Part shown: positions 16,824 to 57,854 of the stretch, one piece after another | Layout of the letters: the number at the start of each line of letters is the position of its first letter | How positions within the stretch are numbered: the first letter of the stretch is position 1 | Source of the DNA: an uncultured Pseudomonadota bacterium | Lineage (GTDB): Bacteria; Myxococcota_A; Polyangia; Fen-1088 | DNA length: 64,000 nt | Reading direction: 5' to 3' | Assembly (NCBI GenBank): GCA_963847705.1 | Contig: CAWKBC010000029.1 | Span: 192,001-256,000 of the forward strand | Made by a program: the position numbers and the translations under genes | Notes under the pieces: generated by a model | What the model saw: only the letters and a program-made list of their open reading frames with translations | What the model was told of the DNA's origin: nothing | Databases searched by the model: none

Positions 16824-17538
16824 CCGGGTCGTTGGTGATGACGCCGTCGACCCCCATCCGGCGGCAGGCGGCGAGCGCCGCCGGATCGTCGACGGTCCAG
16901 ACGTTCACCATGTAGCCGCGCCGCTGCCAGGCGGCCACCCGCTCCGCGGTGCAGAGCACCAGCTCCGGATGCAGCGCGAACGGCCGCAGCCACGGCGCCA
17001 GCCAGGCGCGCCGCAGCGGCAACAGCGACTGGCGTTCGAACAGCAACGCCGCGCGGACGGCGGGCAGGCGACGCATCCAGAGGTGGACCGCCAACGGATT
17101 GAACGACGACACCAGCACGCGGTGGGCGCTGTCGGTCCGCGCGACGACCTCGGCCACCGCCTCCACCAGCGCGGCGATCGGGCCGACGCCGAGCACGTTG
17201 GCCTTGAGCTCGACGTTGACCAGGAGGTCTGGACCGCAGGCCTCCAGCGCCTCTTCCAGGGTGGGGATGGTCGTCCCGCCGGGGAGCTGGACGTCGCGCA
17301 GGGTCCGGTAGGGAAGCTCGGCAATGCGCTCCGGCCGCCCCGCCAGGCGCGCGAGATCGTCGTCGTGAAAGACCATCACCTCGCCGGTCGCCGACAGCAA
17401 GACGTCCAGCTCGACGCCGTCAGCACCGTCGCTGCGGGCGCGCCGAAATGCCGCGACCGTGTTCTCGGTCTCACGTGCGCTCGCCCCGCGATGTCCGAGG
17501 ACCAGCGGTCCCTCCCCGGGCCGGCGCGACTGCCACAC
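16792..17538 (-). CDS. Glycerophosphodiester phosphodiesterase
   Basis: GHRGAS..ENT, GVELDV, VFHD, NVELK, SSF, VWTVD, GVDGVITNDP. Confidence 0.93.
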   Translation of the reverse strand: MWQSRRPGEGPLVLGHRGASARETENTVAAFRRARSDGADGVELDVLLSATGEVMVFHDDDLARLAGRPERIAELPYRTLRDVQLPGGTTIPTLEEALEACGPDLLVNVELKANVLGVGPIAALVEAVAEVVARTDSAHRVLVSSFNPLAVHLWMRRLPAVRAALLFERQSLLPLRRAWLAPWLRPFALHPELVLCTAERVAAWQRRGYMVNVWTVDDPAALAACRRMGVDGVITNDPAKTRTALASA

Positions 17539-17583
17539 ACGAAAAGCGTACCACCGGCGAGGCGGCGCATTAAACTAGAGGCA

Positions 17584-20001
17584 ATGTCGCGACGTGCACC
17601 CTCGGCCGTGGTCGGGGCTCTCGCCTTGGGTTTGCTCGCAGGGTTGGCCACCGGCATCAGCGGAGGCTGTGCGCACACCAGCAAGCCGCCGCCGTCCGGG
17701 CCTGGCCAGGCGCTGGCCAGCGAGGCTTCGCGCATCGGCGCGATTGCCTACGAGGACGACTTCCTCGAAGCCCGGCTGGTCTTCCAGGCGTTGCCGATCG
17801 CGGCGCCCGAGCGGGTGGCGTTGCGCTCCAAGCTCCTCCACTACCTCCTCGATCCGGTGCTGGCGCTCAAGCTGGACGACATCCGGCGCGAGTCGCGCGA
17901 GCTCGAGAGTGACGACGTCTACGAGTCGGTCTTCTCGTCCTTCCGAGATGCGCTGGGGCTCTTCGATCCGAGCGAGCTGTGGGCGGCGCCGGCGCGCGTG
18001 ACGCCCGAGGAGGCGCGCCTCCTGCGGCCAGCGGCGGAGCTGGTCATCGCCCTTTATTCTCCCCGCGGCGGCGATCAGCAGGCGGTGCTGGCGCTGGCGG
18101 CGCTGGCCACGATCGCCCCCGCCGAGCACGAATGGCAGGAGCGGCTCGATCAGGTCGTCCACTGGAGCGAAGAGGAGAGCAACTTCGACGAAGGGGGCGG
18201 CATGCACCGGGGCAGCAGCGCCATCGACGCGCTCGAAAGCGCGCTCGGCGACTGGCCGGCCCCCGCGGTGGTCCTGCGCCTCGACCAGCTCTACGTCGCC
18301 CGGCAGAAGCGGTTCGCCTCGGCGCTCAGCCACCCGCCGTCGGGGGACGGCGCACGGCGGGCGCTCGGCGAGCTGTTGCTGGCGCACGGCGACGAGATGC
18401 AGCGGGCGGTCACCAGCCTGGCCGGCGCCTACCTGCGCGCCGGACGGATCGCCGATGCGGCCACCCGAACGGCGCAGATGACCGGCCAGCTGGCCGGCAA
18501 TGACGGCGACGACCCCGAGCTGCGCGCCCTGCTGGTCGCCGCGGCCAAGCCCAACGCCGCCGCAGCCGACTACCTGGCGCTCGCGCGCCGGTTCCTGCCC
18601 CGGGTCGACTTCCTGGGCGGGACCGCCACCGACGCCCCCGATCCGGTGGTGGCGTTCCGGGTTCTGGAGGCGGGCCTGGGCGCGCACCCCTCCGATGTGG
18701 ATCTCCTCATCCTCAACGGTCACGTCGCGCGTCTGCTGTCGTCTTACTTCCTGGCCATCCGGCGGCTCGAGGAGGCGGAGGCGGTGCTCGAGGCCAACCC
18801 GTCGGCACGAGACCTCGACGGCAAGATCTCGGCGGAGCTGATCGAGCTCTACTTCGTCCGCCTGCGGCTGCGCCTCGATCCCGAGCGCGACGCGCCGGCC
18901 TTTGCGGAGGCCGACGATCTCAAGCGGCGATTCGCCGACACCAAACGCCGGTTCGCCAGCACCGAGATGAAGGTCCGAGACGCCGACATCGACTTCGAGC
19001 TGGCCCGCAGCTACGTCAACGAGGGCCTCATCGACCGCGCCGAGCCGCTGTTTCTGCGGGCGCGTGAGGAGGGTGAACCGACCGCCGACGTGACGGTCGA
19101 GCTGGCCAACCTGGCGCTCAAGCGCGGCAATCCGGCGCGCGCCACCCGAATCGTCCGCGAGGGGCTGGAGGCCCTGCGCGCCAAGGGTGCGTCGCAAGAC
19201 ACCATCGGCTCCGTCGAGGGGCGGGCGCGGCTGGACCGCCTGCTGGGCGACACCTTCGATGCCGCCGGCGATCGCGACGCAGCGGCGACCGCCTGGCGAG
19301 GCTCGCTCATTGGCTGGGAGCGGTTGATGATCGAGCACATCCGCCGGAAGAACGTCGCCGAGTCGGCCGAGGCGAAGGTGGAGGTTGGCAAGCTGCTCTA
19401 CCTCTTGGGCCGTCACGCCGAGGCCTTGCAGCAGTTCGACGACGCCCTCGAGGCCGACGACGACCGCGACCAGTCGTACATCGACATCGTCGCCTTTCTC
19501 GTTCAAGCGGGCGAGACCGACGCCGCGCTCAGCGTCTACCACCGCGCCCTCTCCCGCCCCGGCCATTCCGTGTCGGAGTACGTGAAGGTCTACACCTCGC
19601 TCTGGATCCTCGACCTGACCCGCCGAACTAACAAGGTCGGCGATCCCAAGGCCGAGGCCTACCTGCGCACCCTCGATCAGCGCCACGGCGAGCTCCGCCC
19701 CCACCGCGGTGCCGCCTGGTCCCGCCTGCTGGGCCGCTACGCCGTCGGCAAGATCACCTACGAGCAGGCGCTGGCGGCGGCCGACACGCCCGGAAAACGC
19801 GCGGAGATCTACTTCTACGAGGCGATGCACCGCCTCGAAGAGGGGAAGTCGGACGACGCGCATCAGCTCTGGCAGAAGGTGGTCGAGACGCAGATGTTCT
19901 CGTTCTTCGAGTTCGACATGGCGTCCCACTACCTCCGCACGGGGGCGCCCACGTCTCCTGCCACGTCCGACAGCGCCGCCGCCGCCGCCGCCGCGATCTG
20001 A
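17584..20001 (+). CDS. Large TPR-repeat lipoprotein (NlpI-like C-terminus)
   Basis: Hydrophobic signal ending in Cys (SGGC); TPR-like helices; C-terminal AEIYFYEA..FSFFEFDMA. Confidence 0.7.
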   Translation: MSRRAPSAVVGALALGLLAGLATGISGGCAHTSKPPPSGPGQALASEASRIGAIAYEDDFLEARLVFQALPIAAPERVALRSKLLHYLLDPVLALKLDDIRRESRELESDDVYESVFSSFRDALGLFDPSELWAAPARVTPEEARLLRPAAELVIALYSPRGGDQQAVLALAALATIAPAEHEWQERLDQVVHWSEEESNFDEGGGMHRGSSAIDALESALGDWPAPAVVLRLDQLYVARQKRFASALSHPPSGDGARRALGELLLAHGDEMQRAVTSLAGAYLRAGRIADAATRTAQMTGQLAGNDGDDPELRALLVAAAKPNAAAADYLALARRFLPRVDFLGGTATDAPDPVVAFRVLEAGLGAHPSDVDLLILNGHVARLLSSYFLAIRRLEEAEAVLEANPSARDLDGKISAELIELYFVRLRLRLDPERDAPAFAEADDLKRRFADTKRRFASTEMKVRDADIDFELARSYVNEGLIDRAEPLFLRAREEGEPTADVTVELANLALKRGNPARATRIVREGLEALRAKGASQDTIGSVEGRARLDRLLGDTFDAAGDRDAAATAWRGSLIGWERLMIEHIRRKNVAESAEAKVEVGKLLYLLGRHAEALQQFDDALEADDDRDQSYIDIVAFLVQAGETDAALSVYHRALSRPGHSVSEYVKVYTSLWILDLTRRTNKVGDPKAEAYLRTLDQRHGELRPHRGAAWSRLLGRYAVGKITYEQALAAADTPGKRAEIYFYEAMHRLEEGKSDDAHQLWQKVVETQMFSFFEFDMASHYLRTGAPTSPATSDSAAAAAAAI

Positions 20002-20027
20002 TGTCGCGGCCCGGGCCCGGGCCCGGG

Positions 20028-20290
20028 CTCGCCTCGCTTCGCTCGCTCGCCCTACCGCCACCGCCCGGGCCCGGGCTCGCGCTCGCCTCGCTTCGCTCGC
20101 TCGCCCTATCGCCACCGGGCACGCGCTCGCGCTCGCCTCGCTTCGCTCGCTCGCCCTACCGCCACCGGGCACGCGCTCGCGCTCGCTTCGCTCGCTCGCC
20201 CTATCGCCACCGGGCACGCGCTCGCGCTCGCCTCGCTTCGCTCGCTCGCCCTATCGCCACCGGGCACGCGCTCGCCTCGCTTCGCTCGCC
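20028..20290. repeat. Tandem array A: 5 full plus 1 partial copies of a ~45-54 bp unit
   Basis: Core ctcgcctcgcttcgctcgctcgccctaYcgccacc at 20028, 20082, 20132, 20182 (5 nt shorter), 20227 and partial at 20271. Confidence 0.95.
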
Positions 20291-20350
20291 CGCCCACGCT
20301 TCCGGCTGCGTTCGCCGTCAACCCCGGCGTTTCGCGCCGGCGAGATCTCT

Positions 20351-20556
20351 TCGGCGCGCGTGAACCCTGTTTCGTGCGGCCTCGAACGCCGTCCGCTCGC
20401 GCCCGGGTCCAGGTCCGCACGAAGCTTTTTCCGGCGCGTGGGCTGCGCTCACGTTTTGAAATGGCAGCCCACGCGCCGGAAAAAGCCCGGTGCGGACCGG
20501 AGAGTGAGCGCGAGCGGGCGACGTTCGATCCCGCACCGCTCGGGGTTCACCGCCGA
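20351..20556. repeat. ~206-nt imperfect palindrome (rod-like hairpin)
   Basis: Perfect 23-bp arms at 20424-20446 and 20464-20486 around a 17-nt loop, extended outward by stems of 9, 10, 7, 6, 8 and 6 bp. Confidence 0.93.
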
Positions 20557-20557
20557 C

Positions 20558-20967
20558 GCGAGGCGAGCGAGGCGAAGCCGTCGCGAGCGAGCCCGTTAGC
20601 GAGGCGAGCGAGGCGAAGCCGTCGCGAGCGAGCCCGTCAGCGGGGCGAGCGACGCGAAGCCGTCGCGAGCGAGCCCGTCAGCGGGGCGAGCAAGGCGAAG
20701 CCGTCGCGAGCGAGCCCGTTAGCGAGGCGAGCGAGGCGAAGCCGATGCGAGCGAGCCCGTTAGCGAGGCGAGCGAGGCGAAGCCGATGCGAGCGAGCCCG
20801 TTAGCGAGGCGAGCGAGGCGAAGCCGTCGCGAGCGAGCCCGTTAGCGAGGCGAGCGAGGCGAAGCCGATGCGAGCGAGCCCGTTAGCGAGGCGAGCGAGG
20901 CGAAGCCGTCGCGAGCGAGCCCGTTAGCGAGGCGAGCGAGGCGAAGCCGATGCGAGCGAGCCCGTTA
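20558..20967. repeat. Tandem array B: 10 x 41 bp
   Basis: Unit gcgaggcgagcgaggcgaagccg(tc/at)gcgagcgagcccgtta with an exact 41-bp period and no spacers. Confidence 0.97.
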
Positions 20968-20973
20968 GCGTCC

Positions 20974-22341
20974 CTACGGGGCCTGTAGTTCCCAGCGGCG
21001 CACGAGCACGGACGGGGAGCCGCCCGCGGCCTGGAAGTCGTCCAGGAAATCGTCGGCGGGCGTCCGGCCGGCTTCGGCGTAGGCCAGCAGAGGTGCCAGG
21101 AGCAATGAGTCTTCGGATGTGGCCGGCAACCGTGCGAGACCGAGAGCCGCGATCTTGCAGAGCTCGACCGCCAGCTCGCGCACGGAGCGGCGGCCAAAAC
21201 GCGCCGCCAGCGCGGTCCGCGGCACCTCTCGACGCAGGGCCTCTCGCTCCTCGAACGCATGATCGGCCACCAGCGCGTAGGCGGCGCGGCGCGCCTCTGG
21301 ATCCTCCAGGATGCCGCGCCAGAGGGCACCGAGGCCGCGCGCCATCGGCATCGGCCCGGCGTCGGCGCCGCGCACCTCGATGTAGCGCTTGAGACGCACC
21401 TCGGGGAAGAGCGTCGAGAGGTGGACCTCCCAGTCGGCGATGGTCGCTCGCAGGCCTTGCCACCCTTCGGTCATGAAGCGACGGAAGGTCATCTTGTCGG
21501 CCGGCCGATAGACGCCGTCGCGAACGACGAAGAACATCGGCACGTCCAGCGCCCACTCGACGTAGTCGCGGAAACGGAAGTCGGGCTTGAAGACGAACGG
21601 GAGCAGCCCGCAACGATCGGCGTCGGTCTCCAGCCAGATCGCCGCCCGGTAGCTCTTGAAGCCGCTCGGACGTCCGAGGGCGATCGGCGAGGCGGCGAAG
21701 AGCGCAGTGACGATGGAGGTCACGCCGTAGGCGGTGCGGATCTTTTCGGCCGCGTCGTCCTCGCTGGCGAAGTCGAAGTTGGCCTGGACCGTGGCCGTCA
21801 TCTTCATCATCTGATGCGCGAGGCGGCTCTGGCGGCCGTAGCGGGGGAAATAGTCGCGCATCACCACGTAGCGGCGCTTGGGCAGCCAGGCGATGTCGTC
21901 CGGCGAACCGAAGGGTCGCGACCCCGTGCCGATGAAGCGAATCCCCAGCGGTCGGGCGGCTTCGGCCACTTCTCGCACGTGGGCATCGAGCGCTGCCGCG
22001 CAGTCCGCGGCGGTGAGGAGGGCGCCGCCCGACAGCTCGAGCTGGCCCCCCGGCTCCATGGTGATCCGGTCCCCTTTTCGCGCGAGCGCGATGGCGTGCC
22101 CGTCCTCCCGCGTGGCCTCGAATCCCCGCCCCTCGAGCCGCGCCAGCACCTCGGCCAGGCCGCCCTCACCCTCGTACGGGACCGGGCGGCCGTCGTCCCG
22201 GACGGCGATCTTTTCCTGCTCGATGCCGATCCTGAAGCTGGTCCGATCCTTGGCGCCCGATCGGAAGTACGCAACCAGATCCTCGATCGACAGGGGGGCC
22301 GCGGCCGAGGGGCCGGTCGGAGGAGACAGGGGGCTGGACAT
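20974..22341 (-). CDS. gshA: Glutamate--cysteine ligase (GCS2 family, plant/alphaproteobacterial type)
   Basis: IGIEQEK, ITMEPGGQLELSG, PKRRY, MMKMTATVQANFD, HLSTLFPEVRLKRYIEVRGAD. Confidence 0.93.
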   Translation of the reverse strand: MSSPLSPPTGPSAAAPLSIEDLVAYFRSGAKDRTSFRIGIEQEKIAVRDDGRPVPYEGEGGLAEVLARLEGRGFEATREDGHAIALARKGDRITMEPGGQLELSGGALLTAADCAAALDAHVREVAEAARPLGIRFIGTGSRPFGSPDDIAWLPKRRYVVMRDYFPRYGRQSRLAHQMMKMTATVQANFDFASEDDAAEKIRTAYGVTSIVTALFAASPIALGRPSGFKSYRAAIWLETDADRCGLLPFVFKPDFRFRDYVEWALDVPMFFVVRDGVYRPADKMTFRRFMTEGWQGLRATIADWEVHLSTLFPEVRLKRYIEVRGADAGPMPMARGLGALWRGILEDPEARRAAYALVADHAFEEREALRREVPRTALAARFGRRSVRELAVELCKIAALGLARLPATSEDSLLLAPLLAYAEAGRTPADDFLDDFQAAGGSPSVLVRRWELQAP

Positions 22342-56759: not shown

Positions 56760-57854
56760 TTAGCCGCCCGCGCCACCGGCGCCACCGCACATGTATCGAT
56801 CACCGCCGCCGCCGCCAGCCATGCAGGTGCAGGTCGCGCCAGCCGTGTCCGTGCAGGTGGTCCCTGCGCCCGTGCACGCCGCGAAGGCCCGGCAAGCGTT
56901 GCCGCCGGCGCCCGCGGCGCCGTTCTCGCCGCCAGCGCCACCGCCGCAGGTGTAGCGGCGCGTGCCGCCGGGCCCCGCACCGCAGGTGCAGGTCGCTCCC
57001 GCCGTGTCCCGGCAGGTCTCCACGCCGGTGCAGGCCCCGTCGGCCACGCAGGCGCCGCCGCCAGCGCCCGCCGCGCCGTTCGCGCCGCCCGCGCCACCGC
57101 CGCAGGTGTACCGGCGCGTGCCGCCGGGTCCCGCGCCGCAGGTGCAGGTCGCTCCCGCCGTGTCCCGGCAGGTCTCCACGCCGGTGCAGGTCCCGTCGGC
57201 CACGCAGGCGCCGCCGCCAGCGCCCGCCGCGCCGTTCGCGCCGCCCGCGCCACCGCCGCAGGTGTAGCGGCGCGTGCCGCCGGGCCCCGCGCCGCAGGTG
57301 CAGGTCGCTCCCGCCGTGTCCCTACAGGTCTCCGTGCCCGTGCAGGTCCCGTCGGCGACGCAGGCTCCGCCGCCAGCGCCCGCCGCGCCGTTCGCGCCGC
57401 CCGCGCCACCGCCGCAGGTGTACCGGCGCGTGCCGCCGGCCCCCGCGCCGCAGGTGCAGGTCGCTCCCGCCGTGTCCTTACAGGTCTCCGTGCCCGTGCA
57501 GGTCCCGTCGGCGACGCAGGCTCCGCCGCCTGCACCGGCTCCGCCGGTCGTGCCGCCCGTCCCGGGCGTCCCGAAACCGCCGGTCCCGGTCGTCGTCGTG
57601 CCGCCCGTCCCGGGTGCCCCGAAACCGCCGGTCCCGGTCGTCGTCGTGCCGCCAGTTCCGGTCGTCGTCGTGCCGCCAGTTCCGGTCGTTCCGAAACCAC
57701 CGGTCCCGGTCGTCTCACCACCGGTCCCGGTGGTTCCGCCGGTCCCCTCTGTGCTGCTCGAGCCGCCGCAGCTTGGCGTAAAAACTGCCAAGGCGAGCAT
57801 TGCAAAGCCGCCGACGGCCAACAAAACCTTCTGGGACGTGATCAAGCGCTTCAT
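56760..57854 (-). CDS. Gly/Thr/Cys-rich repetitive lipoprotein
   Basis: Signal ending PSC; GTGG linker; five 6-Cys modules; GGGGGA RBS. Confidence 0.85.
   Translation of the reverse strand: MKRLITSQKVLLAVGGFAMLALAVFTPSCGGSSSTEGTGGTTGTGGETTGTGGFGTTGTGGTTTTGTGGTTTTGTGGFGAPGTGGTTTTGTGGFGTPGTGGTTGGAGAGGGACVADGTCTGTETCKDTAGATCTCGAGAGGTRRYTCGGGAGGANGAAGAGGGACVADGTCTGTETCRDTAGATCTCGAGPGGTRRYTCGGGAGGANGAAGAGGGACVADGTCTGVETCRDTAGATCTCGAGPGGTRRYTCGGGAGGANGAAGAGGGACVADGACTGVETCRDTAGATCTCGAGPGGTRRYTCGGGAGGENGAAGAGGNACRAFAACTGAGTTCTDTAGATCTCMAGGGGGDRYMCGGAGGAGG
56906..57529 (-). repeat. 4 x 156-bp coding tandem repeat (52-aa module with 6 Cys); a degenerate fifth module follows
   Basis: ACVADGTCTG.ETC.DTAGATCTCGAG.GGTRRYTCGGGAGG.NGAAGAGGG at a 156-bp period; boundaries approximate. 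Confidence 0.92.

Follow-up and report, generated by a model that had tools for sequence, protein, structure and literature searches.

Introduction

REPINs are the best-known vertically persistent mobile DNA in bacteria, and both their origin and their maintenance are open questions in the field. Another class of dispersed repeats is formed by the IS630-type MITEs (the ERIC, RUP and Correia class), which are short, palindromic, intergenic and non-coding. Repeats have also been reported earlier from Myxococcus and Nannocystis. Our search of mainly open-access literature returned no description of this family.

The REPIN and BIME literature describes two inverted palindromic units that fold into a long hairpin (10.1101/2021.07.10.451892; PMC3116915), in elements which are extragenic, dispersed, situated behind gene ends and vertically persistent, with occasional tandems of the whole element and with filled and empty sites. 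A GTRG tag at the 5' side is given as a feature of REP membership in another source (PMC8266576). TIRtrons or TIRYT are likewise presented as RAYT-like genes bounded by inverted repeats, which may themselves give rise to dispersed families (PMC3733652), and the available part of a further source (10.1101/279083) does not mention myxobacteria.

Here we describe an intergenic palindrome, referred to as the rod, found between a TPR-domain gene and gshA in a 64-kb stretch of DNA (the window, that is, the whole stretch analysed) from an uncultured soil myxobacterium. The rod shares with REPINs and BIMEs all the properties listed above, from the paired inverted palindromic units to the filled and empty sites. 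On the other hand, it is longer (~190 nt, against ~100 for a REPIN), its centre is the most conserved part whereas the REPIN spacer is variable, and it occurs in 1–25 copies per genome instead of hundreds. Unlike REPINs, its arms have 32–35-nt loops and no GTRG foot, the letters before the outer stems being variable and not GTAG or GTGG; no repeat-flanked single-copy RAYT was found in the incomplete genomes examined, the Y1 family present here being multi-copy; mostly unrelated tandem arrays stand beside nearly every rod; and a circularly permuted sister form exists. The TIRtrons, the closest reference for the putative cognate enzyme, find a parallel in a Y1 element of this genome bounded by terminal inverted repeats (TIRs), whose subterminal motif is common to some rod arms, but the rod ends lack the terminal repeats of the Y1 element, and the motif is clear in a minority of arms. 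Like IS630-type MITEs, rods are short, palindromic, intergenic and non-coding, and sister copies in one genome (G023) carry IS630-like ends; unlike them, rods have neither conserved termini nor evident target duplication. Our verdict is that the rod is best classed as a REPIN/BIME-like non-autonomous element with a new anatomy.

The TPR-gshA Intergenic Region

The gap of 972 nt separates two convergent genes, namely a TPR-domain protein gene on the + strand (16969..20001, longest ORF with an approximate start, stop at 20001) and a gshA-type glutamate-cysteine ligase (GCS2) gene on the - strand (20974..22341, stop at 20974), both directing their 3' ends toward the element. The initial annotation had divided this gap into three parts, a division borne out here: array A (20011..20293), with 5.7 copies of a ~50-nt unit that is C-rich on the + strand; a palindromic fold; and array B (20558..20970), with 10.1 copies of a 41-nt unit. 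The heptamers ascribed to each array were also found in place, GCTTCGC six times in array A and GCGAAGC ten times in array B. Both arrays are indeed opposed, as reported, but they are related to each other, being inverted versions of a single GCTCGC..GCTTCGC.TCGCTCGC unit, with stretches of 71–84% complementarity. A spacer with a small predicted hairpin, conserved only partly in relatives, lies between array A and the palindrome (20296..20359).

The hairpin was initially measured at ~206 nt; the conserved rod comprises 191 nt (20360–20550). The palindrome folds as a rod with z-scores of about -9 to -12 against shuffled sequences, on both strands and with RNA or DNA parameters, and its plan in this copy consists of two different self-palindromic arms, inverted, at either side of a perfect 21-bp hairpin with an AT-rich TYGA loop. 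The left arm (20360..20425) starts with an outer GTGAACC, forms its own hairpin (20370–20379 paired with 20415–20425, with a ~33-nt loop) and ends at a T5 run; the central hairpin (20426..20484) is made of T5 plus 16 bp, a 17-nt loop (20447–20463), and the complementary 16 bp plus A5; the right arm (20485..20550) belongs to the other arm type, is inverted, and contains its own hairpin (20488–20495 paired with 20531–20538) before an outer GGTTCAC. The predicted RNA folding energy of the rod is -158 kcal/mol, versus -112 kcal/mol for three separate hairpins, and the arm hairpins would thus be relevant only transiently, e.g., during transcription or replication. Comparison with Rfam returned only chance miRNA-type matches for the region, and none at the gathering score for nine related loci.

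An assembly artefact, a concern raised at the outset, is unlikely for the rod, since orthologous rods occupy the same junction in three relatives (G001, G021, and G014) and one run X1 contig extends from array A into the rod without any difference (20246–20389). The ten units of array B are a count from the present assembly alone, no listed contig spanning that array.

Conserved Features of the Rod

In 121 of 127 distinct copies the central stem is perfect over 20 bp or more (T5 plus ~16 GC-rich pairs), and it comes in 38 sequence versions. The central loops are AT-rich and 12–18 nt long, and TYGA occurs in 73 of 83 distinct loops versus 13.9 in shuffles, within a quasi-palindromic pattern, TCRM-n2-3-TYGA. 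The spans from T5 to A5 cluster at 54–59 and 62–64 nt, and, with respect to the arms, the loop runs the other way round in three of the 15 copies that have one particular arm combination. Each arm consists of an 8–9-bp stem and a 32–35-nt loop, and ends at the T run; its variable positions covary with the partner within the same arm, and the two arms of a rod usually differ in type. The central hairpin has been deleted in two rods (L022 at C3:139.3 kb of G001, and L024 at C4:273.2 kb of G017).

Distribution and Genomic Placement

The genome under study (G000) contains 12 full rod copies, one of them inside the window, and no convincing case of a solo arm. A sequence model matched rods in 17 of the 26 genomes of the genus, with about 1–25 copies each, and gave no match in the other nine. 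Among 151 genomes of the class, in a survey that scored just 17 candidates per genome, strong matches appeared only in the genus and in one sister genus (G163), which holds many copies; three weak matches look like chance. A pattern scan of a species-level genome collection provided 96 stretches. The family model accepts 74 of them, titled Polyangia, Myxococcales or unclassified proteobacterium, and rejects all 20 titled records from other taxa. No full rod was found outside this Polyangia lineage in the genomes scanned, nor any rod match in viral contigs, phages or plasmids. Metagenomes gave 27 matches to a half-element pattern (20 whole rods, three cut by contig ends and four chance matches); an autonomous form was not found, with no gene in place of the loop among these 27 matches and no half-element by a gene in G000. 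Even if no enzyme can be tied to it, the rod represents a new and clearly delimited repeat family of uncultured soil myxobacteria, confined to one lineage.

Concerning the neighbouring genes of 103 copies, 60 pairs are convergent, 43 tandem and none divergent, counts that are non-independent, as many copies are orthologous, and that rely on genes called by a simple codon-bias rule. Irrespective of gene orientation, the left flank of a rod tends to be rich in C and the right flank in G, a skew whose symmetry around the element holds between tandem genes as well. Tandem copies of whole rods also occur.

Several other observations were made at related sites. The rplI-dnaB junction carries a rod in two distant genomes (L058 and L066, in G008 and G002), degenerate in G002, and is possibly among the oldest insertions. 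An ORF directly upstream of one rod of G000 (C18:6831-7877, L045) was judged by eye to resemble IS21-type transposases, with no Pfam match. A second palindrome family of ~115 nt also exists in this genome, often as inverted pairs enclosing tandem repeats (C27:441143-441616, C34:69179-69650, C14:55258-55609, C14:154855, C7:77884-78190, C8:36789, and C16:41119); at C27:441 kb, such a palindrome occupies a junction where G001 carries a rod instead (L017).

Probable Insertion and Conservation

TPR-gshA synteny is kept in 18 of 23 gshA loci, with a rod in four, a remnant in one and none in 13, and at some of these rod-less junctions the two stop codons are only a few bases apart. The rod has thus likely been inserted. 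In the gshA tree, for which only midpoint rooting was applied, all ten genomes outside a well-supported eight-genome clade lack the rod, which favours an insertion followed by some losses. Empty orthologous sites in relatives (13/18) agree with the earlier proposal of a non-autonomous element of the REP/BIME/REPIN kind.

The orthologous rods of G001, G021, and G014 are 95, 92, and 85% identical to that of the window, versus 70%, 62–72%, and 51–63%, respectively, at four-fold sites of the flanking genes. The central 59 nt are identical (59/59) in G001 and G021, and the arms reach 85–92%. These figures strongly indicate that the rod has been constrained after insertion, more than silent codon sites. 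On a genome-wide basis, 14 of 15 G008 copies and 13 of 14 G163 copies find their closest match within their own genome, versus none of the 12 in G000, where the median identity among rods is 0.68. The family was therefore amplified in some lineages and looks old in G000, and so movement was not observed.

Tandem Arrays Beside Rods

A tandem array lies within 300 nt of all 12 rods of G000 (on both sides in six), versus 245 of 1550 control gaps, which include some glycine-rich coding repeats; the co-occurrence of hairpin and arrays that had been anticipated is therefore found elsewhere in the genome. The parts do not form a fixed tripartite composite, as initially suggested: orthologous sites have entirely different arrays in both unit and copy number, different rod sites within the genome mostly have unrelated units, and GCTTCGC-type arrays flank just two of the 12 rods. 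At the TPR-gshA junction, unit B is present ten times in G000, once in G001, as ~7 variant units in G021 and not at all in G014, and array A likewise differs in unit and copy number. Several arrays duplicate adjacent sequence, such as the start of an arm or pieces of loop and arm, and the array at C29:373k copies the last 17 nt of the upstream gene. This turnover, together with the copying of neighbouring sequence, makes the arrays best read as by-products at an unstable site; they are likely short-lived local duplications and not fixed parts of the element.

Repeat families are abundant in G000, which contains many more intergenic arrays of 70–105-nt REP-like units (e.g., C23:2295, C21:355045, and C40:7848). 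The window itself has long coding-type tandem repeats at 56823–57746, with a period of 156 nt and then 24 nt, apparently in a Gly/Thr/Cys-rich protein.

A Circularly Permuted Sister Family

In G170 (C350:15487-15736, L250/L298), the 3' end of gshA is followed by a ~210-nt element with the rod arms placed inward and the perfect stem outside, i.e., a circular permutation of the rod. This sister family gave 80 BLAST matches in G023, where it has about 40 copies (L318, L323-L341), is present in several other genomes of the genus and is absent from G000. Its outer inverted repeats often run on into site-specific flanks. The permutation could have arisen from a circular intermediate, or by deletion out of a tandem dimer, tandem rods being known.

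In 12 of 20 G023 loci the sister copies end in (C)TAG-N6-YTCASGTTGA, and the same 22-nt end also bounds a DDE_3 (IS630-type) gene elsewhere; this IS630-like wrapping occurs mainly in G023. An assignment of these ends to the Y1 element, considered on account of a 19-nt identity upstream of a Y1 gene of G010, was dropped when the end proved to be of IS630 type.

Search for a Cognate Enzyme

The initial annotation had pointed to RAYT/IS200-type, DUF559 or reverse transcriptase genes as possible partners. A Pfam search of G000 gave no match to DUF559 or to Y1_Tnp (PF01797); the latter miss is misleading, as three copies of a ~1.2-kb TIR-bounded element coding for a divergent 232-aa HUH/Y1 protein are present (C47:43534-44742, with the coding region at C47:43826-44524, C29:169383-170561, and C2:~31.3-32.5 kb; L343-L345). 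Y2_Tnp likewise gave no match in G000, a result without weight because the control genomes gave none either. The Y1 family is multi-copy, with up to 51 matches per genome (G020), and its protein weakly resembles REP_Tyr_transpos. The best fold matches of its structural model (pLDDT 48) are TnpA(REP) and IS200/IS605 TnpA, with E >0.001, and a PDB sequence search with the Y1 alignment gave no real match.

Some rod arms contain, at a constant position, the subterminal repeat of the Y1 element, CATSCGCGGAATCAAG, a resemblance noticed post hoc, after several candidate families had been inspected. With a matrix built from the Y1-element repeats of other genomes, the 11 top sites of G000 correspond to eight Y1 elements, two rod arms and one apparent remnant of a Y1 end, so that rods hold two of the three best non-Y1 sites in 6.1 Mb. 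The 10-nt core GCGGAWTCRA is found at the homologous place in 30 of 248 arms; the full 16-nt motif fits 6–12 of 248 and is degenerate in the rod of the window. Rod loops received only modest scores from a matrix of the hairpin that lies at the start codon of the Y1 gene, mostly through the common TCRA.

The co-occurrence of the Y1 element with rods is weak. A rod lies within 1.5 kb of one of 30 Y1 loci, and of none of 54 Y1_Tnp/DUF559 loci from incomplete genomes. The Y1 family and the rods correlate with rho 0.40; ten of 13 rod-rich genomes contain the Y1 family, as do seven of the 13 others (Fisher p 0.41); G015 has 20 Y1 matches and zero rods, and the Y1 gene was not found in G003, G018, G163, G016, or G023, which are fragmented assemblies rich in rods or sister elements. 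Ends of the Y1 type, TAG-N6-YTCAS, appear in 1–2 of 247 rod flanks, no more than in the control. We tentatively propose the RAYT-like, multi-copy Y1 transposon as a possible cognate enzyme of the rods, mainly on the recurrence of its motif in rod arms.

The RAYT-like family gives a link that is suggestive but unproven; DUF559 and reverse transcriptase showed none. DUF559 was rejected on the Pfam result for G000 and on the 54 loci mentioned above; an origin from a retron msd was discarded because the single reverse transcriptase found has no rod-like flank, and a stand-alone GIY-YIG gene of G000 because its flanks are not rod-like. The palindromes of GxxExxY/IVP systems were also set aside, PF13366 being present in five and PF05635 in three of 30 genomes, all rod-less, with no model match at the 17 such loci checked. 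G150, from the same taxonomic family, has 24 matches to 23S_rRNA_IVP, a large expansion.

Proposed Mechanism and Alternative Explanations

We regard it as probable that the rod is non-autonomous REPIN-like mobile DNA copied in trans by a HUH/Y1 transposase, beside which arrays grew afterwards as local duplications. In exposed single-stranded DNA, the element would fold into the rod or into three hairpins; a Y1 enzyme may then find its substrate through the arm motif and make its nick at, or close to, the conserved TYGA loop, after which the copy would enter the intergenic space at gene 3' ends, in this case behind both stop codons. Selection would likely preserve the copy once it is fixed, its most plausible role being that of a 3'-end element acting both ways, given that each entering transcript meets an arm hairpin and then U5. 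Polymerase slippage at the stable hairpin might duplicate short adjoining sequences and thereby generate the arrays.

The rod could instead be primarily a host RNA module of gene 3' ends, either a two-way terminator or an mRNA stabiliser, rarely spread and kept by RNA selection, which seems to us unlikely. A transcript would in that case meet the C-rich array (a possible Rho-loading stretch), the arm hairpin and the U5 run. The lack of copies between divergent genes (0/103) and a conservation above that of silent sites are consistent with such a role, as are arm stems that end directly at the T run and in which, on the entering strand, G-T pairs outnumber A-C pairs (120 vs 71, a figure that overstates the evidence because the copies are related). 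An E. coli REP array is reported to be a partly Rho-dependent terminator and a stabiliser (10.64898/2026.03.23.713779). One terminator-like site was predicted on the - strand, but a single site is within chance (0.4 ± 0.7 expected). A 277-nt contig in an RNA library matches the rod of a relative; however, contigs, the only form in which the RNA runs were available, cannot show transcription, X19 and X20 look like one data set, and at most 0.16 of the element's words occur in any run. Furthermore, the most conserved part, the central hairpin with its loop, lies beyond U5 on both strands, and termination alone is therefore insufficient to explain the conservation. The perfectly Watson-Crick stem and the loop flips point to events at the DNA level, the composition of the flanks is skewed symmetrically around the rod also where the neighbouring genes are in tandem, and the arm loops far exceed those of usual terminators.

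A more elaborate version of transposition, which we rate as rather improbable, would derive both the rod and its permuted sister from a single circle of single-stranded DNA, devoid of genes and opened in two ways, which the multi-copy TIR-bounded Y1 transposon of Polyangia would mobilise. The Y1 nick would prime repeated copying, so that each insertion would acquire polarised arrays at its sides (on each strand, C-rich 5' and G-rich 3'), and strong selection in the host would then preserve the hairpin.

We give little credence to the rod being a MITE with decayed ends, mobilised by a DDE transposase such as that of IS630. The G023 sister copies sharing their 22-nt end with a DDE_3 gene would agree with it, some rod loops resemble part of an IS630-type end, and CTAG is mildly enriched in rod flanks (62/247 vs 250/1440). 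Nonetheless, conservation in the rod is lowest at the ends and highest at the centre, which is the reverse of a MITE, such ends are found in just 1–2 of 247 rod flanks, no target duplication is evident in the flanks read by eye, and the IS630-like wrapping is mainly a feature of G023. It is equally hard to credit that the rod is a chromosomal DNA site for chromosome structure (a cruciform or a fixed-spacing protein-binding array, akin to the IHF/gyrase-binding BIME-1), since the fixed geometry of spans and arm loops, the conserved loop pattern, the low copy number and the long persistence at orthologous sites are set against genus genomes with no match (9/26), patchy site occupancy, no candidate binding protein and loops that fit the IHF consensus only loosely by eye.

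Biological Significance

Were the circle described above real, it would represent a REPIN-like system whose transposase is still active in transposition, and new tandem repeats would originate from it. If the link between rods and the Y1 element holds true, an active RAYT-like transposon tied to a REPIN-like family would be the intermediate predicted by models of REPIN origin. The permuted sister form may record a replication intermediate, and the rod is a hairpin consistently linked with newborn tandem arrays. The rod family offers an independent, low-copy example alongside REPINs, with datable filled and empty sites and with constraint measured against silent sites.
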